Notes under the pieces: generated by a model
What the model saw: only the letters and a program-made list of their open reading frames with translations
What the model was told of the DNA's origin: nothing
Database searches by the model: none
Shown here: in pieces, positions 12,944 through 41,054 of the stretch
How the letters are laid out: each line of letters opens with the position of its first letter
Position numbering within the stretch: the stretch's first letter is position 1
Assembly (NCBI GenBank): GCA_021791275.1
Contig: JAJYWX010000003.1
Location: 29,641-93,640 of the forward strand
Direction of reading: 5' to 3'
Length of the DNA stretch: 64,000 nucleotides
Source of the DNA: a bacterium
Lineage (GTDB): Bacteria > Patescibacteriota > Dojkabacteria > JAKAPS01 > JAJZLI01
Program-made: the position numbers and the translations under genes

Positions 12944-13644
12944 TATAAATATTTTTTAGATTTTATATCTGATTCTAAAAAATTTTCTAATATTAATAAA
13001 AGATAATATTGTAATTCTTTAGATGTTTTCTCATCCAAGTCTATATTAATAATAGAGTCTGATTTAATATTAAAATTATAAAGATACTTTAATAATTTTA
13101 AAGATTTTATTGATATGTATAGGTCTGAATCTGTACACATTTCATGAAAGATCCCTTCTGAAGATATTATAATTTTATCTTTTTCACTAAATTTATCTCC
13201 ACATTTTAGACAATTATTAAGGTCTATAAACACTCCCTCGATAATTAGGAGTTTTGTTATAAAAAGAAATAGATAAAGTTTTGGATTTTCAAAAATATGA
13301 GAAAGAGAAAATATTATCAAGGAAAATAAATCTTTCTCATCCTGGTCATTTCTTTGTATCTTTAATATAACCTCAACAATAAACATTAAATAAAAAGGAT
13401 ACTTCTCTTTATCTTCAGGATAGGAATTTATTAATCTAACAGAGGTTAATATAGGTAAACCTTTTGTTTGAACAATTTGGTAAGATATATAGTTTCCAAT
13501 ATCTATGAAATTTGCCCTTTTACCATTTTTTAAACTTTTAGCAATAACTGTTACAACACCATATTCTGTAAATATAGTAATTATTTTATCATTCTCTGAG
13601 TAATCAACCGTTTTTAGTATTACTCCTTCATTAATCTTTGACAT
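12940..13644 (-). CDS. recO: DNA repair protein RecO
   Basis: N-terminal OB-fold segment GVILKTVDYSENDKIITIFTEYGVVTVIAKS and a C-terminal Cys cluster (CLKCGDKF...HEMC). Confidence 0.7.
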   Translation of the reverse strand: MSKINEGVILKTVDYSENDKIITIFTEYGVVTVIAKSLKNGKRANFIDIGNYISYQIVQTKGLPILTSVRLINSYPEDKEKYPFYLMFIVEVILKIQRNDQDEKDLFSLIIFSLSHIFENPKLYLFLFITKLLIIEGVFIDLNNCLKCGDKFSEKDKIIISSEGIFHEMCTDSDLYISIKSLKLLKYLYNFNIKSDSIINIDLDEKTSKELQYYLLLILENFLESDIKSKKYLY

Positions 13645-15515
13645 TAAAGATTTATAGTATTAGTAGCAGCTGTAATGTATTGAGATTTATGTATATTTCC
13701 AAAATTTACATAAACCCACTCTCCCTTAATTCCAGCTTCCTTTTGAAATATTAATTTAGAAAGATTTATATTTTGAGGAAGCTCATATTTATAAGTTAAT
13801 GATCCTTTGGAAGGGGGATCTGATTTTGATAATCTTGGTGGAACTTTTATATGATTACCAAAAACAGATTTATCTACAGTAGTATTAATATAATTTTGAG
13901 TAAATCCATCTACTCCAGTCATAGTCATCAAGATAGAACCTTGAGGAACATACATTCTTACCCAAGATAGATATGGCCCCACTAGCCAATCATCATAGAC
14001 TGCAGGTTCTGTCCATGTAACTTTTGTTGATTGTATATATCTTCCGTTACTTGCCTTAACTATATTTATATTAACAGTCTCACCCATAAAATAATTATCC
14101 TTCGCCCCTGCAAGATTTGCCTCTACTATTTGAAGATAATCATATTTATTAGATTTGGGAATAACACCTCCCCATCCATATTGATTTACCAAATCTTCAG
14201 CTTTGAGATTATTAAAATACAAAAGTATCTGCTTATTATTAAGATTACTTATTGTTGTATTTAAAACTTTAAAAACTTGATTACCAGTAGAGTGGAATAC
14301 CTTTGATATAAGCTCATGCATCATTATGGATATAAAATCTTTCCTTTCCTGTTGAGGAAGACCTGATTTTTCAGCCATATATTCCATATAATAATTTGCA
14401 TTGCTAGCTGTTAAAACAAGATTATTCCCATATACAGAAGGCATGGTAATTCCTCCAACTGCATTGATTAAATCATCCACATACCAAGTATTAATAAATA
14501 TTACACCATTAATTGCTGGTGCATTATGTATTGAGTTATAAAATTTATATATATTTGAGACACTTTCTGGGACATCAGCAGATGTATTAGCATCCCTAAG
14601 ATGCCAGTAATAAGTACCGTTATAAACATATAAAGGCTTTGGAGCTACAGGTTTGTAATGGATTACATTTGATATGTTATATATATTTTGAGCTGTAATT
14701 GAACCCAACTGGCCATCATTAAAGTTTACAAATCCAAATGCAGTCATAAAACCCCCAGTTGGCCTTATTTCTCCACTATTCTCAAACATCAATAAATATC
14801 TTTGTGGATTTGGATTTCCCAATATATTTTCTAATGTTTGAGTTGAATTAAATAAAGTAGGCAATGCCCTAATAGCCCCTGAAAATTCTAATTTTAATTC
14901 TTTTATATTATATTTAGACTCTATTGATGAGGGTATGTATGAAACATTAATATTTTGTAAATATTTGTTAGATTTTACTAAATCAGGATATGCCTTCTTA
15001 AATAAAGGGGATAATTTTGGTAAAGATTGAACTATAGCATATATTTTTTCTTTTCCACTTATAGTTACAGCATTTTTTGAAGTTGAGGTACTATATCCAA
15101 ATATTGGAGCTACATTATTTAAACCTTTATCCATATCACTAAATCCTTCAGAAGCATAATAACCAGCATTTATAAGGTTATATCCTAAAGAATAATAATT
15201 ATTTAAAATAGGAATATAGTTCATATATCCTAGTGTATTTATCTCCCCTCTCATTTTTGAGAAATTATTTGTTAGAAGAGGTACTTGTGATTCTATACCT
15301 GATAAATTCTTCTTATCTTTATAATATTTAACTAAAGTAAGCTCTCCTTTTAAAGAGTCATAATTTGATTTTAAAGCTAGAAGAGGTGATATTAGAAAAA
15401 AGTATCCCAACACAATTACAACCACTACAATAGGTGCAGTAATTTTGAACCACTTCCTTTTATAGAATGGCATATTTGATTGATTCTTATATTTATCTAA
15501 ACTTATAACTGACAT
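13644..15515 (-). CDS. Membrane-anchored extracytoplasmic protein, DUF4012-like
   Basis: 623 aa with a single N-terminal TM. The segment NPQRYLLMFENSGEIRPTGGFMTAFGFVNFNDGQLGS matches the RYLLLFQN-AE-R-TGG-G signature I recall for DUF4012, a family that co-occurs with polysaccharide loci. Confidence 0.5.
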   Translation of the reverse strand: MSVISLDKYKNQSNMPFYKRKWFKITAPIVVVVIVLGYFFLISPLLALKSNYDSLKGELTLVKYYKDKKNLSGIESQVPLLTNNFSKMRGEINTLGYMNYIPILNNYYSLGYNLINAGYYASEGFSDMDKGLNNVAPIFGYSTSTSKNAVTISGKEKIYAIVQSLPKLSPLFKKAYPDLVKSNKYLQNINVSYIPSSIESKYNIKELKLEFSGAIRALPTLFNSTQTLENILGNPNPQRYLLMFENSGEIRPTGGFMTAFGFVNFNDGQLGSITAQNIYNISNVIHYKPVAPKPLYVYNGTYYWHLRDANTSADVPESVSNIYKFYNSIHNAPAINGVIFINTWYVDDLINAVGGITMPSVYGNNLVLTASNANYYMEYMAEKSGLPQQERKDFISIMMHELISKVFHSTGNQVFKVLNTTISNLNNKQILLYFNNLKAEDLVNQYGWGGVIPKSNKYDYLQIVEANLAGAKDNYFMGETVNINIVKASNGRYIQSTKVTWTEPAVYDDWLVGPYLSWVRMYVPQGSILMTMTGVDGFTQNYINTTVDKSVFGNHIKVPPRLSKSDPPSKGSLTYKYELPQNINLSKLIFQKEAGIKGEWVYVNFGNIHKSQYITAATNTINL

Positions 15516-16162
15516 TAGTAGGCACCTTTCTTAGAAAAAACTGCAAATGGTGTTTTCAATAATATTAAAAAGTAATTTTTAAGAGAATGATTACTTGCAT
15601 ATTCTAAATCAATCTTGATCCTTTTGTCAAAAGGAATCTCTGATCTTCCAGATACCTGCCAAACACCAGTAATACCTGGTTTTATTGATGTAATTATATC
15701 TATATCTTTTTTAAATTTTTTGTCTCTAGATATGTAATATTTTAATTCATCAAAATAATATGCTCTTGGACCAACTAATGACATATCTCCTTTAAGGACA
15801 TTAAAAAATTGAGGAAGCTCATCTAAACTATATTTTCTCAATACCTTGCCTACACGTGTAACACGAGGATCATCTTTTAATTTGTAATTATTTCTTTTGT
15901 ATTCCATATAAAATTTCTTAAATCTCTTGTCTGTTTTAAGTAATATATGGGCATTTTCAATCATTGATCTAAATTTTAAAAATTTAAAAGGTTTATAATT
16001 AAGTCCTACTCTTTCTGGAGTATCTGCGAATACCGGTCCTTTACTATCAATCTTTATTATAATAGCAATAACAATCATTATTGGTGAAAAAATTATTATT
16101 GCCAAAAGAGATCCGATTATGTCTAAAGACCGAACAAAAAATTTATATACCATTTTTTTCAA
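15515..16162 (-). CDS. Initiating polyprenyl-phosphate sugar phosphotransferase (bacterial sugar transferase, PglC/WbaP C-terminal type)
   Basis: 215 aa with one N-terminal TM and the motifs KFLKFRSM and DELPQFFNVLKGDMSLVGPR. Confidence 0.85.
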   Translation of the reverse strand: MKKMVYKFFVRSLDIIGSLLAIIIFSPIMIVIAIIIKIDSKGPVFADTPERVGLNYKPFKFLKFRSMIENAHILLKTDKRFKKFYMEYKRNNYKLKDDPRVTRVGKVLRKYSLDELPQFFNVLKGDMSLVGPRAYYFDELKYYISRDKKFKKDIDIITSIKPGITGVWQVSGRSEIPFDKRIKIDLEYASNHSLKNYFLILLKTPFAVFSKKGAY

Positions 16163-17231
16163 TTATATTAAATACATTTTTTCTTAAATTAAGATGAAAA
16201 TTTTCTTTAGAAAATTTTTCTGCCCTTTCTCTACAATCCTCTTTGGAAATAGATTGTGCATTAAAATTTCTAACAATCTTTTCTAATTCATCTCTACTAT
16301 TAAAAAGATATCCTGTTTTTTTATCAATAATAGTTTCCTTAACTCCATCCTTATTATATCCTATAACTGCTTTGCCACAGGCAAGAGCCTCTATTGGTGT
16401 TAATCCAAAATCTTCAGCTCCCGGGAAAATCAAAGCTTTTGATTCATTAATTTTATCAATTAAATATGAATCTTTCACATATCCCAAAAAATTTATATAT
16501 CTTTTATCCGCAATTTTTTCTAACTCTTTTCTATAAGAACCTTCTCCAATTATATCAAGTTTTATTTTTAATTTATTAAACACACTAATTGCAAGATCAA
16601 TATTTTTGTATTTTTCTAATCTTGAAATTATTAAAAAATTCCCTTCATAAGAAAAATTATTATTCATTTTAAACAATTCAGTATCCACGAATGGGTAAAT
16701 AACAGTACTATCTCTTCTATAAAATTTCTCCACCCTCTTTTTTACAACTTCAGAGTTTACAAATATATATGAAGGATTTTGAGCAGATGTAAAATCTTTT
16801 ACTCTTAAGTAATTATTAATTATATATAATGGAAGTTTAGATTTAATTCTATCTTGTGTTGAATTTGCTAAATTCCACAAAAATCTTGGTGGTGTAAGAA
16901 CATAAGCTATATGGATTTTTTTAAAAGATATACATTTAGAAAACCCCGCCCCCATAGATATAACTAAATCAAAATCAGATAAATCAAAATTTTCAAATAT
17001 TATAGGAAGAAATGGGATAGAAATATATTTAAGATTAGCTAACAGATTAGGATGTTTAGAAACTTTTATATCATATTTTAAAAAAGATTTGGGAAATACC
17101 TCCTTTTTAAAATAGGGTGTAAATATCACAGATTTAGGAAATGTATTAATAACCCCCTCAAGATGTCTTTCTAATCCGCCATAGACTTTTAAAGGATCTG
17201 TAACAATAGCTATTTTTAAATCTTTTTCCAT
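16143..17231 (-). CDS. Glycosyltransferase family 4 (GT-B)
   Basis: C-terminal EX7E-type region FPGAEDFGLTPIEALACGKAVIGY. Confidence 0.85.
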   Translation of the reverse strand: MEKDLKIAIVTDPLKVYGGLERHLEGVINTFPKSVIFTPYFKKEVFPKSFLKYDIKVSKHPNLLANLKYISIPFLPIIFENFDLSDFDLVISMGAGFSKCISFKKIHIAYVLTPPRFLWNLANSTQDRIKSKLPLYIINNYLRVKDFTSAQNPSYIFVNSEVVKKRVEKFYRRDSTVIYPFVDTELFKMNNNFSYEGNFLIISRLEKYKNIDLAISVFNKLKIKLDIIGEGSYRKELEKIADKRYINFLGYVKDSYLIDKINESKALIFPGAEDFGLTPIEALACGKAVIGYNKDGVKETIIDKKTGYLFNSRDELEKIVRNFNAQSISKEDCRERAEKFSKENFHLNLRKNVFNIIEKNGI

Positions 17232-18301
17232 ACTGAATCAATATACAATTTTATATTTTTCTCAAATAAATCTTTTGAAAATCTTTTAGACTCATTTTTT
17301 AGATATTCACTATCAAATTTGAGACTTTCAAACTCATCAATTGCACTATTTAAAGAAGTCACACTCTGCCCTTTAAATAGGATACCAGTTTTTTTATCTT
17401 TTATAATATCTAAAATGCCTCCTTTGCCATATGCTATAACAGGTTTCCCTGAAGCTAAAGATTCTACAGGAATAATACCAAAATCTTCTTTTTGAGGAAA
17501 AATAACTGCCTTACATTTCTGATAGAAGGAAGGAAGCTCCTTGTCGTTAACTTTATCAAAGAATTTAATATTATTTTTTGATATTGATTTAAGTTTTTTG
17601 ATATATTTGCTATCTCCTTCTCCTACAAAATAAAGCTCTTTTTTATTTTCATTAAATGCCTTTATTACAATATCTAATCTTTTCCAAGGAACAATTCTTC
17701 CCACATATAGATAATAATCTCCACTCAAAGCCTTATTTTTTATAAATCTTTCAATATCGACAGGAGGATTTATAACAACACTATCTCTTTTATAAAATTT
17801 CTTTATTCTTTCTTGGGTATATATTGAATTTGCTATAAAAAAATCTACTCTCTGTGATGCAGCATAATCCCATACCCTCAAATAAGATATAAAAACTGGT
17901 AACAATAATTTATCAAATTTCCCCAAATTCATATCTTTCGTATATTCCAAATAATCCCATACATATCTTGATGGAGAATGCATATAACAAAAATGTAGGG
18001 TCTCTGGGGAAGTAATAACACCATGTGCAAACCTAGTAGAAGAAGATATAACTATGTCATATTTATCAAAATTAAATGATTCAAACGCTAGAGGATATAT
18101 AAAAAAGAATTTTTTAAAATTCTTCCTTATAAAATTATATTTTTGAAAAAAGGATAATTTTAAATCCTTAATATTTAGCAAATTTTCATCTGAAGCTATA
18201 GAAGAGTATATATCTGCATTAAAAATCTCACTTATACAAAGTGATACCCTCTCTGCACCTCCAAATTGCATAAAATCATCATGTACAACTGCATAATTCA
18301 T
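17216..18301 (-). CDS. Glycosyltransferase family 4 (GT-B)
   Basis: FPQKEDFGIIPVESLASGKPVIAYGKGG. Overlaps the downstream GT4 gene. Confidence 0.85.
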   Translation of the reverse strand: MNYAVVHDDFMQFGGAERVSLCISEIFNADIYSSIASDENLLNIKDLKLSFFQKYNFIRKNFKKFFFIYPLAFESFNFDKYDIVISSSTRFAHGVITSPETLHFCYMHSPSRYVWDYLEYTKDMNLGKFDKLLLPVFISYLRVWDYAASQRVDFFIANSIYTQERIKKFYKRDSVVINPPVDIERFIKNKALSGDYYLYVGRIVPWKRLDIVIKAFNENKKELYFVGEGDSKYIKKLKSISKNNIKFFDKVNDKELPSFYQKCKAVIFPQKEDFGIIPVESLASGKPVIAYGKGGILDIIKDKKTGILFKGQSVTSLNSAIDEFESLKFDSEYLKNESKRFSKDLFEKNIKLYIDSVWKKI

Positions 18302-18403: not shown

Positions 18404-19402
18404 ATGAGTAATAAACAAATCTTAATTCTAGGAGGGGCAGGATATATAGGTTCTCACACTCTAAATTTATTAAAAAGATCCAATTATGACGTTATAGTAA
18501 TTGATAATCTTTACTCTGGACATGAAAAAGCACTGGGAGATCTAAAAGATAGATTTATAAAAGGAGATATATCTTCAAAAACTCTTTTGCAAGCAAAAAA
18601 AAATTTTGGCAAGATTGATGGGATAATACATTTTGCAGGGTACATCGAGGTTGGAGAGTCTATGAGATCTCCATATAAATATATAAAAAATAATATTGAT
18701 ACAGCCACATTGATACTTGAGTTTATGAAAGATGAGGGAGTTAAAAATATAGTATTCTCTTCATCTGCAGCTGTTTATGGAAAGGATTACTCAGAGAAAA
18801 TAAAAGAAGATTTTTCAAAAAATCCAATAAATGTATATGGATTTACAAAATCTGCATTTGAGGATATATTAAACTTTTATTCTCAAATATATGGTATAAA
18901 CTATGTATCTTTAAGATATTTTAACGCATCTGGAGCATCTCATTTTACAAATATTGGGGAAGATCATCCAAATGAGACTCACTTAATACCTTTAATTCTT
19001 AAAACAGTACAGGGGAAAAGAGACCATGTAGACATATATGGAGATGACTATAAAACAAAAGATGGAACTTGTATAAGAGATTATATTCATGTAGATGACC
19101 TTGCAAGTGCTCACCTTCTTTCAATGGAACATATTATAAACGGAGGAGAAAGTAATATATTTAACCTTGGGGGGAGTAAAGGTTATTCTGTAAAAGAAAT
19201 AATTGATACTACAGAAAAAATAACTGGGATGAAGGTTAATTTTAAGATATCAAAAAGAAGAGAGGGTGATCCAGATATATTAATAGCAGATTATTCAAAA
19301 ATTAAAAATATACTTGGATGGCAGCCAAAATTCGGAATAGATGATATAATAGAGACTGCCTGGAAATGGCATAAAAATAATCCAGAGGGTTTTAATATAT
19401 GA
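18404..19402 (+). CDS. galE: UDP-glucose 4-epimerase
   Basis: Rossmann motif ILILGGAGYIGSH, the YxxxK catalytic context and GalE-like length (332 aa). Confidence 0.85.
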   Translation: MSNKQILILGGAGYIGSHTLNLLKRSNYDVIVIDNLYSGHEKALGDLKDRFIKGDISSKTLLQAKKNFGKIDGIIHFAGYIEVGESMRSPYKYIKNNIDTATLILEFMKDEGVKNIVFSSSAAVYGKDYSEKIKEDFSKNPINVYGFTKSAFEDILNFYSQIYGINYVSLRYFNASGASHFTNIGEDHPNETHLIPLILKTVQGKRDHVDIYGDDYKTKDGTCIRDYIHVDDLASAHLLSMEHIINGGESNIFNLGGSKGYSVKEIIDTTEKITGMKVNFKISKRREGDPDILIADYSKIKNILGWQPKFGIDDIIETAWKWHKNNPEGFNI

Positions 19403-20481
19403 AATATATAGGAATTGATTTCAGAGAAGTAGGAGAACATGAAACTGGGATAGGAAACTACACAAAAAGCATTGTCTCTGAAATGTTGAAAATAGATAAA
19501 AAAAACGTATATTATATAATATGTAATAGTGGGTCAATATACGAAAAATATAAAAATATATATAAAAAGAATAAGAATATTAAAATAGTTGCAATAAAAT
19601 CTAAGACAAAGAGTGTACTCTCTGAATTTACCTTAAATAGAGAATTAAAAAAATTAAAAATAGATATATTTTGGACTCATATATGGGGAAGTATATATTT
19701 TTTTTCTATACCATATACTATTACTTTACATGATGTAATAGGAGTTAAAAACCCTCAATTTGTAAGTTTAAAATACAAAATATATAACAGATTCCACTTA
19801 AAATGGACAATCAACAGAGCATATAAAGTTTTTACTCCAACTTATGCGGTAAAAGATGATGTCATAGAATATTTAAAAATAAAAAATAGCAAAAAAATAA
19901 GAGTTATAGGAGAAGGTGTTAGTGTCCCTAAAAGTTATTATGAAGGCGAAGATATTTTAAAAAAATACAAGATAGATAAGGAGTATTTCATATATGTAGG
20001 TAATAGTAGACCTCATAAAAATGTACAAACCCTTGTTTCTGATTTCTTACTTTACAAAAAGAAATATAAGCAAGATACAATGCTTGTTTTAATAGGGGTA
20101 AAAGAGAATGATATAGGTATTAAAAATAAAAATGTAAAAATTCTTCATAATATAAATAATGTTGAAAAATTTGAAATTTTAAAGAAAGCTATTTGTTTCG
20201 TAACACTAACTTATGATGAGGGATTTTCCTTACCTATACTTGAAGCCACATATTCTGGAATACCCGTAATATGTACTGATATACCTGTTCTAAGAGAAGT
20301 TATAGGAGATGAAGGTGCAATTTTTGTAGATAATTTATATGAAGATGATGTTTGTGAAGCATTAAATAAAATATATCTAGATAAAAATTTAAGGGAAAAT
20401 ATTGTTAAAGAAGCAAAAGAAAGACTTGAAGTTTATACTTGGAAAAAAAGTGCAAAAAAAGTATTAAAATATATTAAATGA
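19399..20481 (+). CDS. Glycosyltransferase (GT4-like, GT-B fold)
   Basis: C-terminal EGFSLPILEATYSGIPVICTD. Start overlaps the galE stop (ATGA). Confidence 0.75.
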   Translation: MKYIGIDFREVGEHETGIGNYTKSIVSEMLKIDKKNVYYIICNSGSIYEKYKNIYKKNKNIKIVAIKSKTKSVLSEFTLNRELKKLKIDIFWTHIWGSIYFFSIPYTITLHDVIGVKNPQFVSLKYKIYNRFHLKWTINRAYKVFTPTYAVKDDVIEYLKIKNSKKIRVIGEGVSVPKSYYEGEDILKKYKIDKEYFIYVGNSRPHKNVQTLVSDFLLYKKKYKQDTMLVLIGVKENDIGIKNKNVKILHNINNVEKFEILKKAICFVTLTYDEGFSLPILEATYSGIPVICTDIPVLREVIGDEGAIFVDNLYEDDVCEALNKIYLDKNLRENIVKEAKERLEVYTWKKSAKKVLKYIK

Positions 20482-21674
20482 AAGATAAAAAGAATGCCTC
20501 ATTAAATTTAATAATTTTTAATATTATTAAGTTTATATATGTAACATCAGTTGCATATATAATTTTTGTAAATAATTCAAAATATTTTGAATATGTTGCT
20601 CCTGTAATTATTATATTTGAAATATTAAATATATTTTCAAATTATATAAATAAGAAATGGGAAATTGATATTAGCTCTATTGGTTCTATAATAGCAATCA
20701 CAGATATATCATTTTTATTTTTCATATTAATTATAACCCACAACAATGTTTTATTTTTAGCATTAGCATTAATATCTTATATTCTAAACTTTTTAATATA
20801 TAATAAATTAGTAATATCTTTAGAGATTTTTATTACAGCACTTTTATTATTTTTCCTAGGAGTAATATATCTAAATATTGTATATATTCTCCTTGCCTTA
20901 ATATTTATAATAATAGGGGTATCCATATATTTATATAGAACCAATTTTAAAAAAGATGAAAATACTGATATAAAACCAGATATTATTACTAATGAGAAGG
21001 ATGAAACCGTAGATATAAAGGATGAATTTACTATTATTGTTTCACATAATTTAAGAACACCGATTGCTACATTAAAAGGATATTTACAACTTATAGAGTA
21101 TACAAATGACGAGGAATTAAAGCAAAACTATTTAAACCTTTTAAAAAATAACGTTAATAAATTATATCTTTTAACAGAAGAAGTACTTGGTATAATAAAT
21201 AATACTAAAACCTCTGATTCAAAAACAAACGTAAATTTAGTAATCTCAGCTCTTATAGAAAGATTCGATGAAGATCTGAAATCAAAAAGGATAGAAATTA
21301 ATGTAAAAAGTGATTCTCAAAATACAGAAGTAAATGTAGGAGAATATAGATTAAAAATAATATTGGGCAATATTATTGAAAATGCCATAAAATTTTCTCA
21401 CTTAAATTCTCAGATCGATATTAATATATATCATATCCAAGATAAAGGATTATCAATTAAAATAAGAGATTACGGTACAGGGATAGAAAAGGAAGCTTTA
21501 AAAAATATTTTTCAGAAATATCACAAAACTGACAACGTACTAAATTCTAATTTTGAAGGTTTAGGGTTAGGCCTATATATAGTAAAAAGCTTAATAAATG
21601 ATGAAAAGGGGCAAATTGTTATAAATTCAGAGAAAGGAAAAGGTACAGAAGTTGAAATAGTATTCCCATTGTAA
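20478..21674 (+). CDS. Sensor histidine kinase with polytopic (about 5 TM) membrane sensor and no large periplasmic loop
   Basis: H-box SHNLRTPIATLKGY, an HATPase_c domain with G-boxes (RDYGTGI, GLGLGLYIV) and 5 N-terminal TM helices. Confidence 0.8.
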   Translation: MKDKKNASLNLIIFNIIKFIYVTSVAYIIFVNNSKYFEYVAPVIIIFEILNIFSNYINKKWEIDISSIGSIIAITDISFLFFILIITHNNVLFLALALISYILNFLIYNKLVISLEIFITALLLFFLGVIYLNIVYILLALIFIIIGVSIYLYRTNFKKDENTDIKPDIITNEKDETVDIKDEFTIIVSHNLRTPIATLKGYLQLIEYTNDEELKQNYLNLLKNNVNKLYLLTEEVLGIINNTKTSDSKTNVNLVISALIERFDEDLKSKRIEINVKSDSQNTEVNVGEYRLKIILGNIIENAIKFSHLNSQIDINIYHIQDKGLSIKIRDYGTGIEKEALKNIFQKYHKTDNVLNSNFEGLGLGLYIVKSLINDEKGQIVINSEKGKGTEVEIVFPL

Positions 21675-21686
21675 TAATATAGAGAT

Positions 21687-22931
21687 ATGCTCAAGAAAAT
21701 AAGAAAATTTACTGAAGACGCTAGTATTTCAGAGCCAATAGCATATGTTATTTTTATAAGGATATTTATAAAGGTTTTTATTTTCTTATCCGCACTCTAC
21801 TTCAAGCTTAATTATGCATCATTGTCAATAATTATATTTATATTTCTAGTAACAGAAATATATAGAAATATTGGTACAATTTTATCGGCCACCAAAAAAT
21901 TTCCTGATGAACTTATCGGAGGAATAATATCAGCACTGGATGGTGCAATGATAGTACTTTTACTTTACTACACAAACCTTTTAGGAAGTTATCTATACAT
22001 TTTTATAATACTTTCAATAGCTTTCGATACAATCGAATATGGTATTACTGCAGGTATGGCTGAAGGATTAACTGCTTCAATTTCATATGTATTTTTAGAA
22101 GGGTTTATAAGTACTAATTATACAGAAATTTTAATTAAAGCTTTAATAATAATCATAATTGGAATTATTACAGGATGGCTGAGTGAAAAAATGAAAAATA
22201 GTGAAAAATTGCTACAGAATACTTTAATGAAAAGTAAAAAAGCACAGAGGTTAAATAAGATAAAAGATGAGTTTATTGGAATTAGTTCACATAAAGTAAA
22301 AACTCCAATATCAGTTATTAAAGGTTATATTGAGTTACTCCTCAATGGAAGAGCAGGAGACTTAAATGAAGCTCAAAAAGATTACTTACTGAAAATAGAT
22401 GCCAACACATCTACATTAAATATGCTAATTGACGATCTTCTAAGTATACTTACATTGCAAAATAATAAAATTACAATAATCCCTGCTGAAAATTATATTA
22501 TAAAACTCTTAAATGAGATAAAAAGCAATTTTGAAGCTGAGGAAAAGATAAAGAATATAAAATATTTAACTGATATTGATATAAAAGATAATAAGTTGGC
22601 TGTTTTTGATTATGATAAAATAAAGATAGCAATATCAAATATACTCTCTTATTCTTTTGAAAAATCTAGAGAATCTATAACCTTAAGATCTTATGTAAAT
22701 GAGAATAGTTGGTTTATAGAGGTAAAGGATGATAGTCTAGGTGTAAGTAAAAATGAAGTAAAAAGAATACTTTCGGATAAAAATGAAATTTTCCAAACAA
22801 TAAAAGAGTTAGGAAATAAAGGATTAAATTTATATATATCAAATCTCATAATTCAAGCCCATAAGGGAAGGTTTGAAATAATATCAATAGAGGGTATAGG
22901 TACAACCTTTAAAATTAAACTACCACTATGA
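21687..22931 (+). CDS. Second sensor histidine kinase, paralogous architecture
   Basis: H-box SSHKVKTPISVIKGY and a C-terminal HATPase-like region, after 5-6 TM helices. Confidence 0.75.
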   Translation: MLKKIRKFTEDASISEPIAYVIFIRIFIKVFIFLSALYFKLNYASLSIIIFIFLVTEIYRNIGTILSATKKFPDELIGGIISALDGAMIVLLLYYTNLLGSYLYIFIILSIAFDTIEYGITAGMAEGLTASISYVFLEGFISTNYTEILIKALIIIIIGIITGWLSEKMKNSEKLLQNTLMKSKKAQRLNKIKDEFIGISSHKVKTPISVIKGYIELLLNGRAGDLNEAQKDYLLKIDANTSTLNMLIDDLLSILTLQNNKITIIPAENYIIKLLNEIKSNFEAEEKIKNIKYLTDIDIKDNKLAVFDYDKIKIAISNILSYSFEKSRESITLRSYVNENSWFIEVKDDSLGVSKNEVKRILSDKNEIFQTIKELGNKGLNLYISNLIIQAHKGRFEIISIEGIGTTFKIKLPL

Positions 22932-23287
22932 GTAAAATATTATTAGTTGAAGATGACAATGACTTAGTAAATATATATAAAGAAGAACTTAGTTTTTCTA
23001 ATATAGATTTTGATATCGCTACAAATGGAGAGGATGCAATTAAAAAAAATGAATCTTTTGATTATGATTTGATAATGCTTGACATAATGCTTCCTGATAT
23101 TAGTGGAATAGATGTACTTAAGAAAATCAAGGAAAAAGATAAAGATAAAAAAGTTATTGTGATATCAAATTTAGAAGTCCCTGCAATAATAAACCAAGCT
23201 TTTGCGTTAGGTGTTAATGCCTATCTTATAAAAGCAGAGCTTCTGCCATCTCAGATAATAGAAGAGGTAAAAAGACTTATAACATGA
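22928..23287 (+). CDS. Single-domain response regulator (CheY-like receiver only)
   Basis: LLVEDDNDL...DLIMLDIMLPDISGIDVLKKIK...KVIVISN. 119 aa with no output domain. Confidence 0.8.
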   Translation: MSKILLVEDDNDLVNIYKEELSFSNIDFDIATNGEDAIKKNESFDYDLIMLDIMLPDISGIDVLKKIKEKDKDKKVIVISNLEVPAIINQAFALGVNAYLIKAELLPSQIIEEVKRLIT

Positions 23288-24960
23288 ATGAATTAATCCT
23301 TTATACTACAGCTATACTAACTTTAGCATTAATCGGTGGTTATATAGCTGTAAAATTTAAGCAATACGCAATAGTAGGCTACATATTGATGGGAGTTATA
23401 ATAGGGAGTTTTATTTCCAAAATTCCAGGATCAGAAAATGACATACAAACTCTTTCTTATATAGGTGTTGCATTACTAATTTTTTATACAGGTACGGAAT
23501 TTTCTCTAGGCAAGGTATTGGAATACAAAGGTGTTATTATTAAAGGAATAATAATACAATTTATTATAAATCTTTTAATAATAACATTCCTATTATTTAT
23601 ACTAAAAATAAATATCATTCAAAGTATAATTATTTCTGCAGCACTTTCCTTTAGTTCAACTATTATTGTAAGCAAAATACTAAAAGATCTTGATAGGAAT
23701 TATTCCAATGAAAATCAAATAACTATATCTTGGTTAATGTTACAAGACCTTATATCTATCCCTGTGATAATTTTTATAGAAGATTTTGCACAAAGAGTAC
23801 ACGGTAGTATGCTTATTTTTTCAATATTATCACCAATACTAAAGAGTATTTTACTTCTTATCATAATTTATTATCTAGGATCATTAATCATTCCATACAT
23901 ACTAAAGGAGATAGCAAAAACAGAAATAAGAGAACTTTTAATAATATCGATAATCTGTATTTTATTTATAATGATAACTCTATCTTATTACATAGGTATA
24001 TCCCCTGTAATAGGTGCATTCATTGCAGGATTAATCATTTCCAAAGGGATGCTCAATCATGAAATTTCATCAGAAATTCGGCCATTTAAGGATATATTTT
24101 CTGTATTCTTTTTTATACTTATTGGGACACTCACTCCAATATCTTTTATATTTTCACATATAATAATTATTATTCTTTTAATAATATTTTTTGTACTAAT
24201 AAAGATTATAGTAGAATACTTACTTTTGAATAATTTTCATTTCCACTCTCTTGAATCATTTACTATTGCTCTCAATATGTTCCAAGCTGGAGAATTTTCA
24301 TTTATTGTGGGATTAACTGCATACTCATATGGATTATTATCATTTAATAATTATCATCTGCTATTATCAGTCACAATAATAACTATGATATTTTCCCCTA
24401 TTGTTATAAAAAATAATATTAATATATATAATTTTATAAAAAGATTCTTAGGAAAAAAGGATAATAGAAGCCATACCTCTTCCCAAGTAGAATCAGAGAA
24501 AGATTCTCATAGTGATATAGTAATTGCAGGATATGGACGAGTTGGAAGACAAATAACAAATATTTTAGTCAAAAATGGTATATCGGTAACTGTCATTGAT
24601 TTTAATAAAGATTTAATAAATTCAGAGAAGAATAAGAACATAAGATTTGTTTATGGAAATGCCGAATCTTTGGATATATTAAAATTTGCAAGAGTGCCTG
24701 ATGCGAAAGTTTTAATTATAACTACGCCAGAAATAGAAGTTAATTATGAAATAACAACTCTTTCAAAAAAAATTAATCCAAGGATAAAGATAATTGCAAG
24801 ATCTCACTTGCCAAAACATAAAGAGATTCTATCTAAATCAGGGGTAGAACATGTTATAGAACCTGAAAAAGAGGCTGCGAAAAAAATGACTGAGATCCTA
24901 TTGCAATCTATTGGCAAAAAAGAAAAAGAAATACTTTTTATATTAGATAATATTAAGTAA
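23284..24960 (+). CDS. Monovalent cation:proton antiporter (CPA2, Kef-type) with C-terminal RCK/TrkA-N domain
   Basis: About 12 TM helices, then Rossmann IAGYGRVGRQITNIL and a TrkA-N-like domain. Confidence 0.8.
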   Translation: MNELILYTTAILTLALIGGYIAVKFKQYAIVGYILMGVIIGSFISKIPGSENDIQTLSYIGVALLIFYTGTEFSLGKVLEYKGVIIKGIIIQFIINLLIITFLLFILKINIIQSIIISAALSFSSTIIVSKILKDLDRNYSNENQITISWLMLQDLISIPVIIFIEDFAQRVHGSMLIFSILSPILKSILLLIIIYYLGSLIIPYILKEIAKTEIRELLIISIICILFIMITLSYYIGISPVIGAFIAGLIISKGMLNHEISSEIRPFKDIFSVFFFILIGTLTPISFIFSHIIIIILLIIFFVLIKIIVEYLLLNNFHFHSLESFTIALNMFQAGEFSFIVGLTAYSYGLLSFNNYHLLLSVTIITMIFSPIVIKNNINIYNFIKRFLGKKDNRSHTSSQVESEKDSHSDIVIAGYGRVGRQITNILVKNGISVTVIDFNKDLINSEKNKNIRFVYGNAESLDILKFARVPDAKVLIITTPEIEVNYEITTLSKKINPRIKIIARSHLPKHKEILSKSGVEHVIEPEKEAAKKMTEILLQSIGKKEKEILFILDNIK

Positions 24961-24999
24961 AAATTTGCAAAAATGACTTTATTTTATTAGAATCTATTT

Positions 25000-25500
25000 A
25001 TGCTTAAGAGGAATTTAGATAATAAGGTTGTATTAGGTGTATGTGCAGGCCTTTCAGATTATTATAATATAGATGTAACACTAATAAGGATAATCTTTAT
25101 TATAACAACATTATTATTTGGAATAGGTCTAATTATTTATTTAATATTAGGATTCATTATGACAATAGAAGAAGAAAATCCAAAAATTATCAAAGATTCT
25201 AAAAAAGTAGAATTTATAGATCCAGAAAAAAATGCTAAGAATTTCGCATATATACTTTTAACCATAGGTGTAATTATATTACTTTTTTATACTCCAATTG
25301 TTCAAGTATTTTATAATGGAATATTTTGGGGTATATTCTTTATACTACTTGCGTTAAGCATTATTTTAAAGAAAAAGACATTTTCTATTCCTATGTTTAT
25401 TGTGGTCTTAATAGTATCTATAATATTAACTATAATTGTAAAAGATTTAGGATTCTATTTATCCCAGAATCTACCTTATCCTTATAATAATTACTTTTAA
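25000..25500 (+). CDS. PspC-domain membrane protein
   Basis: N-terminal LKRNLDNKVVLGVCAGLSDYYNIDVTLIRIIFII is a PspC-type amphipathic/TM segment. Confidence 0.65.
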   Translation: MLKRNLDNKVVLGVCAGLSDYYNIDVTLIRIIFIITTLLFGIGLIIYLILGFIMTIEEENPKIIKDSKKVEFIDPEKNAKNFAYILLTIGVIILLFYTPIVQVFYNGIFWGIFFILLALSIILKKKTFSIPMFIVVLIVSIILTIIVKDLGFYLSQNLPYPYNNYF

Positions 25501-25503
25501 AGT

Positions 25504-25785
25504 ATGGATGTTAAAACATTTTTTGAATTGATAAAAATAATATCAATTGATTACCCCATAGCATTAATATTTGGAATAATTGTTTTTTTTATATCTAGAA
25601 AATTTATAATTAAAAATTATATTATAGATTTATTAATAGCTTTTATATTTTTTATAATTTTTACATTTATACCTTATTCTATAGTTGATAGGGGATATTA
25701 TTTAGCTTTTATGGTATATATTAATAAAGGAATAACAAATATATTTAATCAATTAGCAAGTAGCATACTTTTACATAAATCATAG
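25504..25785 (+). CDS. Hypothetical small membrane protein
   Basis: 93-aa ORF with 2-3 hydrophobic helices. Confidence 0.3.
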   Translation: MDVKTFFELIKIISIDYPIALIFGIIVFFISRKFIIKNYIIDLLIAFIFFIIFTFIPYSIVDRGYYLAFMVYINKGITNIFNQLASSILLHKS

Positions 25786-26314: not shown

Positions 26315-27670
26315 TTAAAATCTTTTTATTTTATCAAATCCAGTATACTCTCTTAGAACCTTAGGTACAAGGATACTTCCATCTTCTTGTTGATAATTTT
26401 CAAGTATCGCTATCAAACTTCTTCCGAGAGGAGCCCCTGTATCATTTACTGTATGTACATAATTAAGCTTTCCATTTTCATCTCTATATTTTATATTTAG
26501 TCTTCTTGCTTGGAAATCGGTTGCATTTGTACATGTACCCACTTCTATAAAAGTATTCTGAGATGGTAACCAAGCCTCAATATCTGACTGTATAGCACTT
26601 GCATAATAACCAGAATCTCCTTTACATTTTAAAATTATATGAAAAGGAATCTCTAATGACTCCCAAAACCATTTATTGATATCTAAAAGTTTCTTAAAAA
26701 TTTTATCGGATTGATCAGGAGTCGATACAACATCCATTTCTAATTTATCAAATTGATGTACTCTTTTTATCCCTCTTACATCTTTTCCCCAAGATCCTAC
26801 TTCAGTTCTAAAACAAGTTGTATTTGCAAATACCATCTGAGGAAGTTCATATTCATCAAGTATTTTATCCATAAAATAAGAAAAATTACTCGGTTCTGAT
26901 GATCCAACTAGATAAAGTTTATTGTTATCTTCTACTTTTGAATCTTCAACAGAGTAAACCTGGTCTTTCTCTTGAGGGAAATGACTAGTCCCATATAAAG
27001 ATCTTTCTTTAACAAGTAATGGTGGATTTAGAGGGTAAAAACCCTCTTCTATAAGTTTTTTTGAAAGATGAGATACTATTGCCCATTGAAGTAGTACTCC
27101 TTCCTTTTTAATATATGAAAATCGAGAACCAGAAACTTTTGCAGATTGATTTATATCAATAATATCATTAATTTCTCCTAGTTCAACATGATCTCTCAAC
27201 TCAAAATTATGGTTATCAGAATGAGAAGAATATTTAGGCATATATTGGGAGGATTTATTATCTTTCCCTAATTTAGATTTATCAAACGATTTTATTTCCG
27301 GACTCCAAGCATAAGTTTCAATATTATCCTTTTCTTCTGACCCATCTGGGACTTCATCTTTAAATACATTTGGAATCCAAAGCATTAGGTTATTATATTC
27401 TTCTTCAATAAGGGAAAGTTCTTTATCTAAAGATTCTTTTTGTTTCTTTAGATTTTTCCCAGTCTCTATTAATTTTTCATCCCTTACACTCTTTAACTTA
27501 TGTGAAATCTCATTTCTTTGCCTATTTATACCATCAACTTTTTCTATAAGTTCGACTCTTCTTTTATCTGATTCCAAAAGTTTATCTAGAATACTAACAT
27601 CTAACTTCCTACCTAAAAGACTAGACTTCACTTTATCTTGATTTTTTCTTATATAGTCTATACTTAACAT
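26315..27670 (-). CDS. serS: Serine--tRNA ligase
   Basis: N-terminal coiled-coil arm (MLSIDYIRKNQDKV...) and class II motifs (FRTEVGSWGKDVRGIKRVHQFDKLE, GRSLIAILENYQ). The start is taken at the MLSIDY methionine, because the longer ORF would overlap the upstream gene. Confidence 0.85.
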   Translation of the reverse strand: MLSIDYIRKNQDKVKSSLLGRKLDVSILDKLLESDKRRVELIEKVDGINRQRNEISHKLKSVRDEKLIETGKNLKKQKESLDKELSLIEEEYNNLMLWIPNVFKDEVPDGSEEKDNIETYAWSPEIKSFDKSKLGKDNKSSQYMPKYSSHSDNHNFELRDHVELGEINDIIDINQSAKVSGSRFSYIKKEGVLLQWAIVSHLSKKLIEEGFYPLNPPLLVKERSLYGTSHFPQEKDQVYSVEDSKVEDNNKLYLVGSSEPSNFSYFMDKILDEYELPQMVFANTTCFRTEVGSWGKDVRGIKRVHQFDKLEMDVVSTPDQSDKIFKKLLDINKWFWESLEIPFHIILKCKGDSGYYASAIQSDIEAWLPSQNTFIEVGTCTNATDFQARRLNIKYRDENGKLNYVHTVNDTGAPLGRSLIAILENYQQEDGSILVPKVLREYTGFDKIKRF

Positions 27671-27683
27671 AAAGCTAAATTTA

Positions 27684-28151
27684 TTATAATAAAAATTCGG
27701 AGGATTTAATATAATAAAGTAGTATACCACAGGCGACTGAAACATTTAAAGAATTTTTTTTACCATACATTGGTATTTCTATTACATAATCTGATGATTT
27801 AATTATTTCATCACTAACACCATCTATTTCATTACCTAAAGCTAGGCAAATTTTTTTAGGATACTTAATATCTGTATACAAATAACTTTCTTTTTTCTGT
27901 TCTGCAGAATATATAGGTATATCTAATTTTTTTATTTTATTTAATATAAATATTAAATCTCTATTATATTCCCAATCAACATAATCAAGAGCTCCTAGAG
28001 CAGTTTTATCCAACTTATGATCTGGAGGATAAGGAGTATATCCTGATAAAAATATTTTTTTTACACCTACAGCATCAGCAGTCCTAAATATTGACCCCAC
28101 ATTAAACGCACTTCTAATATTATATAATAATAAGTAAATATCCCTATTCAT
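27684..28151 (-). CDS. SpoU-family RNA 2'-O-methyltransferase (TrmL-like)
   Basis: 155 aa with SPOUT motifs NVGSIFRTADAVG, LGNEIDGVS and IPMYGKKNSLNVSVACGILLY. Confidence 0.7.
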   Translation of the reverse strand: MNRDIYLLLYNIRSAFNVGSIFRTADAVGVKKIFLSGYTPYPPDHKLDKTALGALDYVDWEYNRDLIFILNKIKKLDIPIYSAEQKKESYLYTDIKYPKKICLALGNEIDGVSDEIIKSSDYVIEIPMYGKKNSLNVSVACGILLYYIKSSEFLL

Positions 28152-36144: not shown

Positions 36145-36218
36145 TGACCTTGGCGGGATTCGAACCCGCGATTACCAGGATGAGAACCTGGTGTCCTAGT
36201 CCACTAGACGACAAGGCC
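36145..36218 (-). tRNA. tRNA-Glu (anticodon CTC)
   Basis: Reverse complement reads GGCCTTG TC GTCTAGTGGACTAGGAC A CCAGG TTCTCAT CCTGG TAAT CGCGGG TTCGAAT CCCGC CAAGGTC A. The cloverleaf has a 7-bp acceptor stem (one G-U), a T-loop TTCGAAT and an anticodon loop TT-CTC-AT. CCA is not encoded. Confidence 0.85.
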
Positions 36219-39456: not shown

Positions 39457-40383
39457 TTATTTTTTAAGATACCTAGAAATGGCTATAAAAGAAGAGATTG
39501 AGCCTATAATAATTCCCAATAAAACTTCAACAAAAATTATTTCCAAAATAAGTAAAGGAGAATATTGAGGTATAGGTATTCCTTGGAAGAAACTTAGAAG
39601 AGGTAAAATTACAGACTCTCTATAATAAGTATTTAAAACTAAAAATATTAGATAAAGTATTATTGATGATGCAAATACACCAATTATTCCATAAAATGCA
39701 CCTTCAAATATAAATGGGCCAGAGACATAGGTATCAGTTGCCCCAACTAACTTCATTATCTCTATTTCCTCGGAGTGAGAATTTATTGTTATAGCAACAG
39801 TTATTATTATTATTACAAAAGATATTATAGATAAAAATACAATAAGTCCTATACCAATACTTGTAATAATAGATACAGCCTTTTTAAGAAACTGTACAAC
39901 ACTCTTAAAGTAAAGAATATTGTTTATTTCCCCCTTACTTTGAGATTTTAATTTATATAATATACCCGCAATATATTCTAAATTAGATAAATTATTCGTA
40001 CTTATTTCATATGATGGAGGTAGTGCATTTAAATCTACCGCCTTTGCAAGTTGAGGGTTTTGCGTTTTTAATGTTTTTTCAAAGTTTACAAAAGCCTGTT
40101 TTTTAGAAACATATTTTATTTCTGTTGCCCTATGAGTATTTTCTATATCTTTTTTAACTGCAGATATATAAGAGGCTGGTGCATTTGGATTAAAAAACAG
40201 TATGATTTGAGATTTAGATTCATAGTAGTGTAATACTACATTTACAGAATACACAGTCAAGGAAAATATCGATATAACAAAAAAAGTAAGGGTCATTATC
40301 GCTATAGAGGCAAATGAAAGCCATCCATTTCTTATTATATGTTGATATGTGTATTTTAAAACTCTTTCCAGTTTAAGCATCAT
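39457..40383 (-). CDS. ftsX: Cell division ABC transporter permease-like protein FtsX
   Basis: 308 aa with 4 TM helices and an extracytoplasmic domain between TM1 and TM2. Overlaps the ftsE stop. Confidence 0.8.
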   Translation of the reverse strand: MMLKLERVLKYTYQHIIRNGWLSFASIAIMTLTFFVISIFSLTVYSVNVVLHYYESKSQIILFFNPNAPASYISAVKKDIENTHRATEIKYVSKKQAFVNFEKTLKTQNPQLAKAVDLNALPPSYEISTNNLSNLEYIAGILYKLKSQSKGEINNILYFKSVVQFLKKAVSIITSIGIGLIVFLSIISFVIIIITVAITINSHSEEIEIMKLVGATDTYVSGPFIFEGAFYGIIGVFASSIILYLIFLVLNTYYRESVILPLLSFFQGIPIPQYSPLLILEIIFVEVLLGIIIGSISSFIAISRYLKK

Positions 40384-41054
40384 TCGTTATAACCTCCCTC
40401 AGAGTCTCTAATAATTCTACCCTCATCCAACGCTATAACTCTTTTTTGCATTGAATTAACAATATCTGATGCATGTGTGGCCATAAGAACTGTAGTTCCC
40501 CAACTATTTATTTTATTCAAAAGCTGTATAATATCCCACCCTACCAATGGATCTAAATTCCCTGTAGGCTCATCAGCTATAAGAATATGAGGATTATTCA
40601 CCAATGCTCTTGCAATAGCAACTCTTTGCCTCTCTCCTCCAGATAGTTGATGTGGAAACATTTTAGACTTAGTTGAAAGACCAACCATATCTAATATATA
40701 GTCTACACTTTTTTTGATTTCTCTATTAGTATGGTCTGAAAGTTCTAAAGCAAAAGATACATTCTCAAATGTAGTTTTCCTTGGAAGAAGTTTGAAATCC
40801 TGAAATACTACCCCTATCTCTCTTCTTAGGTAAGGCAGGGCTTTTTTATTTAATTTTTCTATATCATAACCTGCAAAATGTATACTTCCAGATGTTAAAT
40901 TCTCTTCCTTTATTACCAACCTTATTACTGTACTCTTCCCTGCCCCAGAATGGCCTACAAGAAAAACAAACTCCCCCTCATCAATATGAAAATTTATATT
41001 ATCTAAAACAGTCTTACCTTTATACTCTTTATAAACATTTTTAAAAGTTAACAT
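40380..41054 (-). CDS. ftsE: Cell division ATP-binding protein FtsE
   Basis: Walker A GHSGAGKST, signature LSGGERQRVAIARAL and Walker B LIADEPTGNLD. 224 aa. Confidence 0.9.
   Translation of the reverse strand: MLTFKNVYKEYKGKTVLDNINFHIDEGEFVFLVGHSGAGKSTVIRLVIKEENLTSGSIHFAGYDIEKLNKKALPYLRREIGVVFQDFKLLPRKTTFENVSFALELSDHTNREIKKSVDYILDMVGLSTKSKMFPHQLSGGERQRVAIARALVNNPHILIADEPTGNLDPLVGWDIIQLLNKINSWGTTVLMATHASDIVNSMQKRVIALDEGRIIRDSEGGYNE

Follow-up and report, generated by a model that had tools for sequence, protein, structure and literature searches.

In a 64-kb stretch of contig JAJYWX010000003.1 (64,000 nucleotides, called the window below) we analyzed a signaling module that consists of two tandem membrane-embedded proteins of the histidine kinase type (HK1 and HK2), a small protein made of a receiver domain only (REC) and, directly downstream, a Kef-type cation/proton antiporter. 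Our comparison of gene order in and beyond the window's own clade indicates that the deeply conserved unit is a GT4 glycosyltransferase gene, a six-helix membrane sensor and a receiver-only protein inside a glycan gene cluster, and that HK1 and Kef arrived secondarily. We propose, with a confidence that approaches even without reaching it, that a sensor pseudokinase, its catalytic paralogue and the receiver-only protein act at the post-translational level, with the synthesis of surface glycans as the most likely target. As kinds, stand-alone receivers, tandem kinases, bacterial pseudokinases and Kef-RCK antiporters have all been described before. What appears to be new is the consistent placement of a sensor with a receiver-only output in a surface-glycan cluster of Patescibacteria, a six-helix sensor domain that on sequence evidence is restricted to this lineage and belongs to no described family, and a series of catalytic decay on that sensor with a probable catalytic paralogue alongside.

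The conserved unit in distant lineages

An exhaustive phmmer search with the transmembrane (TM) domain of HK2 against 1.84 billion representative proteins returned 8 matches, and for three of the distant proteins a position on a contig could be established (loci L027, L028 and L029). The order in L027 is GT4, sensor P0296 (phospho-acceptor His replaced by Glu, G boxes missing), a receiver of 121 residues, three further GT4 genes, DUF4012 and RecO. L028 carries Wzm/Wzt and, further along, GT2, GT4, the sensor kinase P0298 with all motifs canonical, two receivers in tandem, two GT4 genes, Bac_transf, DUF4012 and RecO, and L029 has GT4, an AbiEii pair, sensor P0297 (again His to Glu), a receiver of 130 residues and two GT4 genes. 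None of the three loci contains Kef, HK1, PspC or a DNA-binding regulator.

The glycosyltransferases on either side of the sensor-receiver pair are themselves conserved. An orthologue of the window's plus-strand GT4 stands upstream of the sensor in every lineage examined that has the module, and the window protein scores 104-136 bits against the upstream GT4s of L027-L029 and at most 26 bits against other GT4s. The GT4s that follow the receiver in L027-L029, on the same strand as the receiver, are orthologues of the two minus-strand GT4s of the window (GTb and GTa), and behind them come the phosphoglycosyl transferase (PGT) in L028 and DUF4012 and RecO in both L027 and L028. In the window the module is thus flanked by GalE and GT4 on its own strand and by a divergent block of GT4, GT4, the Bac_transf PGT and DUF4012, a block that also contains RecO; GT4, GT4 and DUF4012 accompany the module in the window, L027 and L028, and the Bac_transf PGT does so in the window and L028. 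DUF4012 adjoins a priming transferase in the capsule/exopolysaccharide cluster of Bifidobacterium longum (PMC5412050) and is among the families enriched in the candidate phyla radiation (CPR) and Gram-positive bacteria (PMC6744442). Given the flanking GT4s, PGT and DUF4012, we conclude that the module sits within a surface-glycan gene cluster.

The sensor domain and the decay of HK2

Both HK1 and HK2 begin with a block of about 160 residues holding about six hydrophobic helices. In an AlphaFold2 model of HK2 residues 1-175 (pLDDT 69.5, pTM 0.61) there are six helices, and the loops that connect them measure 2-7 residues. The helix blocks of both kinases and, for HK2, this model agree with the initial annotation's description of the kinases as membrane-embedded and free of periplasmic loops. 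The TM region is the best-conserved part of HK2, with 69% mean identity and 43% invariant columns, and the glutamates E57, E117 and E126, all within the helices, are invariant even in distant relatives. The accompanying proposal that signals are sensed within the membrane is therefore plausible, given the six TM helices of the sequence and the model, the minimal loops and these intramembrane glutamates. Its suggestion that the sensors belong to the 5TMR-LYT or MASE type found no counterpart in domain searches: with the full proteins as queries, Pfam and NCBIfam matched no sensor family at E<=0.01, and a Pfam search with just the TM regions (HK1, HK2, P0298) matched no family even at E<=10. Full-length relatives of HK1 and of HK2 amount to about ten 90%-identity clusters each among 5.8 billion sequences, after which there is a cliff in E-value. 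What the two proteins share with intramembrane-sensing kinases of the LiaS/BceS type, with 5TMR-LYT and with MASE is a sensor that lies almost wholly in the membrane and has no extracytoplasmic domain; in the window's clade the likeness extends to an envelope-related context, namely the PspC-domain neighbor.

The catalytic half of HK2 has had a different fate. Its H-box, SHKVKTP, keeps both the His and the Thr at H+4 (the phosphatase residue), but in the N-box (NILSYSFEKS) Asn is replaced by Tyr, the G1 and G2 boxes read DDSLG and GLNL, the F-box is absent, and the HATPase_c domain scores a weak 41 bits. In most HK2 orthologues the ATP-binding motifs are as degenerate as this or worse, the out-group P0298 being canonical. 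HK2 is the full-length orthologue of this canonical kinase. The alignment of HK2 with P0298 covers 404 residues and takes in the TM domain (32% identity, E 1e-58); that of HK1 with P0298 is limited to the core. The His itself has been lost in P0257 (to Asn) and in P0296 and P0297 (to Glu), so that the family forms a graded series from the fully canonical P0298, through the window's HK2, ATP-blind with its His in place, to the His-less P0257, P0296 and P0297. HK2 is thus probably a pseudokinase, a phosphatase or a scaffold, and by its motifs it looks ATP-blind. Of the two tandem kinases first described, the tandem of HisKA proteins stands, but the second member looks like a pseudokinase. Constraint on the membrane domain persists along the whole series of catalytic decay, which argues that the essential role of the sensor is signal reading and partner binding rather than catalysis. 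A series that runs from active through ATP-blind to His-less on one conserved membrane sensor should also be useful for studying how bacterial pseudokinases originate.

A kinase-like protein that has lost catalysis, paired with a single-domain regulator in a circuit that also includes a genuine kinase, is known from DivL and DivK of Caulobacter (PMC4211667, PMC5361649). By that precedent of a repurposed kinase reading a single-domain regulator, phosphorylated REC might bind back on HK2, whose DHp/CA region would sense the state of the receiver and modulate HK1 or another partner, the kinase complex itself being the output. The HK2 lineage would suit such a role in that it loses its catalytic motifs (in L027, L029 and P0257 the His too) and keeps the DHp domain and the pairing with REC. 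We nevertheless hold this to be distinctly unlikely, for it would still require a downstream effector, the His and H+4 Thr of the window's HK2 speak more for phosphatase or phosphotransfer chemistry than for binding alone, and no HK1 lies beside the His-less sensors. DivL, moreover, is cytoplasmic, contains PAS domains, has Tyr for His and acts in the cell cycle, in contrast to HK2 with its His, its six-helix membrane sensor and its setting in a glycan cluster.

HK1 as the probable catalytic paralogue

HK1 shows the opposite pattern. Its HisKA and HATPase_c domains score 32 and 74.6 bits in Pfam, both above the cut-off, and its ATP-binding motifs are all intact (N-box NAIKF/Y, G1 DYGxGI, F-box IFxKYHK, G2 GLGLGLY); these and the H-box, SHNLRTP, are invariant among the orthologues examined. 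Mean pairwise identity is 32% in the TM region versus 72% in the DHp domain; the sensor region of HK1 evolves fast and has drifted, with the ATP-binding motifs kept. Full-length relatives of HK1 occur in the window's clade only.

The core of HK1 is just 27% identical to that of HK2, which rules out a recent tandem duplication; a duplication can at most be ancient. A TM-only hhalign comparison of the two is colinear (77% probability, E 2e-5; reversed control E 0.36) and pairs E48, D75 and E116 of HK1 with E57, D85 and E126 of HK2. The TM region of HK1 and the sensor of HK2 are thus remotely homologous, which suggests that the two proteins stem from an old duplication.

HK1 lacks an acidic residue at H+1, Asn standing there in every HK1 orthologue. 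In the HisKA proteins that have been tested, an acidic H+1 residue was needed for autophosphorylation and kinase activity, and Thr or Asn at H+4 for phosphatase activity (PMC3510030). Among 138 other HisKA kinases that we retrieved, 24 have Asn or Gln at H+1, a recurrent minority variant, and none has Lys or Ser. The catalytic competence of HK1, read from its motifs, is thus likely but not certain: the acidic residue is missing, though Asn or Gln recurs elsewhere. The lack of an acidic residue beside the phospho-acceptor His runs through the family, with Asn in HK1, Lys in HK2 and Ser in P0298.

The receiver-only proteins

REC matches Response_reg with 71.6 bits over residues 4-104 of 119. Its phospho-acceptor site is complete (D9, D10, D52, S80 and K102) and conserved across four lineages, and its C-terminus bears a family-specific motif, IKAELLPSQIIEEV, that is conserved in orthologues. 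All REC orthologues keep the site and the motif, even where the sensor beside them is His-less. Among solved structures REC comes closest to two single-domain regulators, TrrA (3a0r) and RR468 (3dge).

The two-component parts within the 64 kb are two kinases and two receivers, nothing else. The second orphan receiver that the initial annotation had noted (REC2) is real; it lies on the minus strand, is 34% identical to REC and adjoins, on the upstream side, a release-factor gene and ftsE-ftsX (41088-42173, 40380-41054 and 39457-40383). REC2 could be a second substrate of HK1/HK2 or be tied to cell division. The second tandem receiver of L028 was considered as its orthologue, and identities of 38-40% did not single it out.

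Single-domain receivers often serve as phosphate sinks or phosphorelay intermediates. REC could likewise be a sink, or an intermediate that hands phosphoryl groups on to a regulator encoded elsewhere in the genome (possibly a DNA-binding one or REC2), with an Hpt protein or a bifunctional kinase in between, and the presence of two receiver-only proteins and two kinases within 64 kb, together with the two tandem receivers beside a single kinase in L028, would fit such a scheme. DifD is a single-domain receiver with a sink or relay role of this kind (PMC12802240). We think it an unlikely account of REC: neither an Hpt domain nor a DNA-binding regulator was found in the window or in the 14 related loci (11 within the clade and the three distant ones), and the alpha4-beta5-alpha5 face of REC carries its family-specific motif in all lineages, suggesting a conserved binding partner. 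The same survey upholds the initial annotation's statement that the module has no DNA-binding output, REC being receiver-only and OmpR/NarL-type regulators absent from all 11 in-clade and 3 distant loci. The annotation had also allowed that the arrangement might be an artefact of a local deletion; with no canonical regulator in any related locus, that explanation falls away.

Gene order within the clade and the place of Kef

The genes of the module, their overlaps and their neighbors are listed in Table 1; open reading frames (ORFs), Pfam and NCBIfam confirm HK1, HK2, REC and the Kef/TrkA-N antiporter at the positions first given for them. The window has about 27% GC and a coding density of about 96%, and close relatives of its proteins carry the label 'Patescibacteria group bacterium'.

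Table 1. Genes of the signaling module, its neighborhood and the second receiver, with positions in the window.
Feature	Position	Strand	Basis or remark
DUF4012	13644-15515	-	
Small monotopic phosphoglycosyl transferase (PGT), Bac_transf	15515-16162	-	
GT4 (divergent)	16143-17231	-	
GT4 (divergent)	17216-18301	-	
GalE, UDP-glucose 4-epimerase	18404-19402	+	NCBIfam TIGR01179 407.8 bits, cut-off 262.3; first gene of block
GT4 glycosyltransferase	19399-20481	+	Pfam; ATGA overlap with HK1 directly downstream
HK1 histidine kinase, 398 residues	20478-21674	+	HisKA and HATPase_c (Pfam, NCBIfam)
HK2 sensor, 414 residues	21687-22931	+	HisKA and weak HATPase_c match
REC, 119 residues	22928-23287	+	Response_reg only (Pfam)
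Kef/CPA2 antiporter, 558 residues	23284-24960	+	Na_H_Exchanger and TrkA_N (Pfam, NCBIfam)
PspC-domain membrane protein	25000-25500	+	Pfam; downstream of Kef
93-residue membrane protein, 2-3 hydrophobic helices	25504-25785	+	After PspC gene
REC2, second receiver-only protein, 128 residues	42188-42574	-	Canonical residues

The initial annotation had described a tightly packed four-gene operon with ATGA overlaps at 22928 (HK2/REC) and 23284 (REC/Kef). The packing and both overlaps, read directly in the sequence, are as described, but the co-directional overlapping block is longer: it starts upstream at GalE and GT4 and runs through HK1, HK2, REC, Kef and the PspC gene to the small membrane-protein gene (18404-25785), with ATGA overlaps of 4 nucleotides at the GalE/GT4 and GT4/HK1 junctions as well. 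Such overlaps are the genomic norm here and no special mark of coupling, for 24 of the 52 co-directional neighbor pairs in the window overlap, 11 of them by exactly 4 nucleotides. The overlaps joining HK2, REC and Kef are therefore no evidence of functional pairing, and the same holds more generally for ATGA overlaps and adjacency in compact genomes. Scans for sigma-70 promoters and terminators found sites no commoner than in shuffled sequence of 27% GC, so that they do not set the limits of transcription units. An Rfam search of the region matched no regulatory RNA, its sole match being a tRNA at 36145-36218.

Within the clade we compared 11 loci from related metagenome-assembled genomes, whose Kef proteins are 54-71% identical. 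All 11 show the order GalE-GT4-HK1-HK2-REC-Kef-PspC-small protein as far as their contigs extend. By itself this says little, because the entire neighborhood from RecO to SecA is syntenic in the clade; the junctions are more informative. Those between GT4 and HK1 (-4 to 20 nucleotides) and between HK2 and REC (-4 to 10 nucleotides) are never interrupted. In L013 and L019 the HK1-HK2 junction has taken up an AbiEii toxin-antitoxin pair, and in L015, L021 and L022 the Kef-PspC junction has taken up a DUF87/TrwB-like ATPase. The REC and Kef genes share 4 or 1 nucleotides in 7 of the 11 loci, are 88-109 nucleotides apart in the L015 group, and are separated in L023 by 1165 nucleotides holding a 79-residue ORF and MntP (L023:5835-6659). 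In L023 two different cation transporters, the manganese exporter MntP and Kef, thus follow the signaling genes. A profile scan of genome contigs with the Kef alignment found five loci only, all of them in-clade, and a metagenome scan with the HK2 alignment found one short contig; neither widened the sample.

The antiporter itself scores 195.9 bits for Na_H_Exchanger and 96.8 bits for TrkA_N, and its C-terminus has RCK_N (TrkA_N) without RCK_C, with the GxGxxG motif of RCK_N intact (GYGRVG). Its best match in the PDB is KefC (8bxg, E 1e-48), with 'LMLQDLISIP' falling on the QD motif of KefC. Against the curated NCBIfam equivalogs for YbaL, KefC and KefB it scores 230, 229 and 210 bits, below the respective cut-offs of 700, 752 and 804. 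By these scores Kef is a distant CPA2-RCK relative, KefC-like, and not an orthologue of YbaL, KefC or KefB.

Could REC act on Kef? REC stands where KefF and KefG stand relative to KefC and KefB, and, phosphorylated or not, it might bind the RCK domain of Kef and gate K+/H+ exchange, the kind of output that the initial annotation had in mind. With a gene for a small alpha/beta protein directly upstream of, and overlapping, that of a CPA2-RCK antiporter, REC and Kef resemble the KefF-KefC, KefG-KefB and PtsN-YcgO pairs (PMC2920069, PMC11808508, PMC11150392), and control of a K+/H+ antiporter by its small partner is documented for KefF-KefC (PMC2920069) and, at the end of a phosphorelay, for PtsN-YcgO (PMC11808508). 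The frequent REC/Kef overlap in the clade, the KefC-like character of the antiporter and its intact regulatory RCK_N domain would all suit such a pairing. However, KefF and KefG are quinone oxidoreductases and PtsN is a phosphotransferase-system protein, whereas REC is a CheY-like receiver, and REC adjoins Kef in the window's clade only, with one genome of that clade as an exception. Relatives of Kef in other Patescibacteria (L024-L026, about 31% identity) lie beside a pseudouridine synthase, with a LytR_C protein on the other side in two of the three, and have no HK or REC nearby. Within the clade the pair is split by MntP in L023 and by the longer gap in the L015 group, and the older sensor-REC pair does without Kef in three lineages. 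The adjacency appears to be secondary, because the GT block that ancestrally followed REC has moved to the other side and the other strand in the window's clade; REC overlaps its downstream GT4 by 4 nucleotides in L027 and by 8 in L029, the same kind of overlap as that with Kef in the window. Kef thus became the neighbor of REC through rearrangement and, judged by gene order, is not a conserved partner. The co-occurrence of HK-HK-REC-Kef that the initial annotation proposed to look for is found in one syntenic clade only, interrupted in L023, and the gating of Kef by REC, biologically reasonable as it is, lacks comparative support; we consider it quite improbable. Kef, the PspC protein and the small membrane protein, the latter two following Kef in every in-clade locus and absent from the distant ones, are probably co-transcribed neighbors in this clade, which may be co-expressed as functions of the envelope or of ion homeostasis.

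Discussion

How could a membrane sensor and a lone receiver act on the synthesis of surface glycans? We suggest that the sensor would detect a signal inside the membrane through its invariant intramembrane glutamates. HK2 of the window's clade, with ATP binding lost and the His and H+4 Thr kept, would serve as the partner that reads the signal, as a phosphatase or as a scaffold for phosphotransfer, and HK1 would supply phosphoryl groups to REC, either directly or in trans via HK2. Such a division of labor, HK1 as the phosphoryl source and HK2 as the sensing member, is the most economical model, and within it HK2 might also be an allosteric partner. Phosphorylated REC would then work through direct contact with other proteins, most likely the enzymes of glycan assembly from the neighboring genes, by analogy with EpsW, which when phosphorylated activates EpsZ in Myxococcus.

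EpsW of Myxococcus xanthus is a receiver-only regulator that activates the Bac_transf-family priming transferase EpsZ post-translationally, and its modelled docking site is the cytoplasmic DUF of EpsZ, a large monotopic PGT (monoPGT), without beta-hairpin (PMC12802240). The likeness to our module, one of domain type and gene context, lies in a receiver-only protein with an intact phospho-acceptor site, in a polysaccharide context that includes a Bac_transf priming transferase, and in the lack of transcriptional output. The two systems differ in their kinases, EpsW being phosphorylated by DifE, a CheA-type kinase of a chemosensory system, and the kinases here being membrane proteins of the HisKA type. 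They differ also in the transferase. EpsZ, a large monoPGT, has a TM bundle and a cytoplasmic domain; the window's PGT, a small monoPGT of 215 residues, aligns with no more of the WbaP/EpsZ models than their C-terminal catalytic part (positions ~255-445).

Several points weigh against our proposal of post-translational control of glycan synthesis. In small, densely packed and syntenic genomes, neighborhood is weak evidence for a candidate target of REC. The small monoPGT lacks the cytoplasmic domain on which EpsW is modelled to dock, so the EpsW mechanism cannot be carried over literally, and the partner of REC might equally be a GT4 or DUF4012. The sensors of L027 and L029 have no His and no adjacent kinase, so that REC must there receive its phosphoryl group from another source or go without one. 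At H+1 HK1 carries Asn, whereas the HisKA kinases that have been tested needed an acidic residue. Finally, about 14 loci exist, too few for covariation tests.

One may go further and suppose that the duplicated kinase split its labor for good, HK2 keeping the six-helix sensor with its three invariant glutamates and losing ATP binding, HK1 keeping catalysis while its sensor drifted, and both forming with REC an obligate hetero-complex that tunes glycan assembly, and possibly the K+/H+ antiporter, purely post-translationally. We regard this fuller version as unlikely; if true, signaling of this design would dispense with transcription factors, which would suit ultra-small bacteria of episymbiotic habit.

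Patescibacteria have tiny genomes with few regulators, and to our knowledge the control of their cell surface, which is their interface with the host, is essentially unknown; a literature search on two-component systems of Patescibacteria found nothing specific. A conserved sensor-receiver pair that is tied into a glycan cluster and lacks transcriptional output would give a concrete, testable case of these bacteria controlling envelope synthesis post-translationally. If the proposal holds, the principle recently described for EpsW and EpsZ extends beyond the myxobacteria.

Other features of the region

A DUF6922/AbiEii pair lies between HK1 and HK2 in L013 (L013:9255-10123) and L019, upstream of the pseudokinase in L029 (L029:6897-7752) and at L015:1-176; its insertions appear independent in a sub-clade and in a distant lineage, which suggests either a site where insertion recurs or an addiction module that is mobile and tracks the locus. 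The ATPase of the DUF8128/DUF87/TrwB-like type (750-865 residues) found between Kef and PspC in one sub-clade (L015:12699-14957, L021 and L022) turns up again near Kef relatives or the isoleucyl-tRNA synthetase IleRS (L025:10243-12840, L027:1369-3885 and L029:1371-3659). In L028 two genes for a '23S rRNA intervening sequence protein' (PF05635; L028:3685-4068 and 10179-10541) lie within the glycan cluster, and one of the two comes immediately behind the tandem receivers. GalE is split into ORFs of 81 and 246 residues in a metagenome assembly (L007:1846-2844), either a frameshift pseudogene or an assembly error.

Elsewhere in the window, an RND-type (ACR_tran) permease of 992 residues is encoded at 9965-12943 on the plus strand, a position that is kept in related genomes; a permease of this type is unusual in Patescibacteria, where an outer membrane is thought to be lacking. 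The ORF of seryl-tRNA synthetase (26315-27745, minus strand) has 476 residues, compared with 448-454 in relatives; the true start is probably further downstream, in which case its 62-nucleotide overlap with the SpoU methylase gene would vanish.

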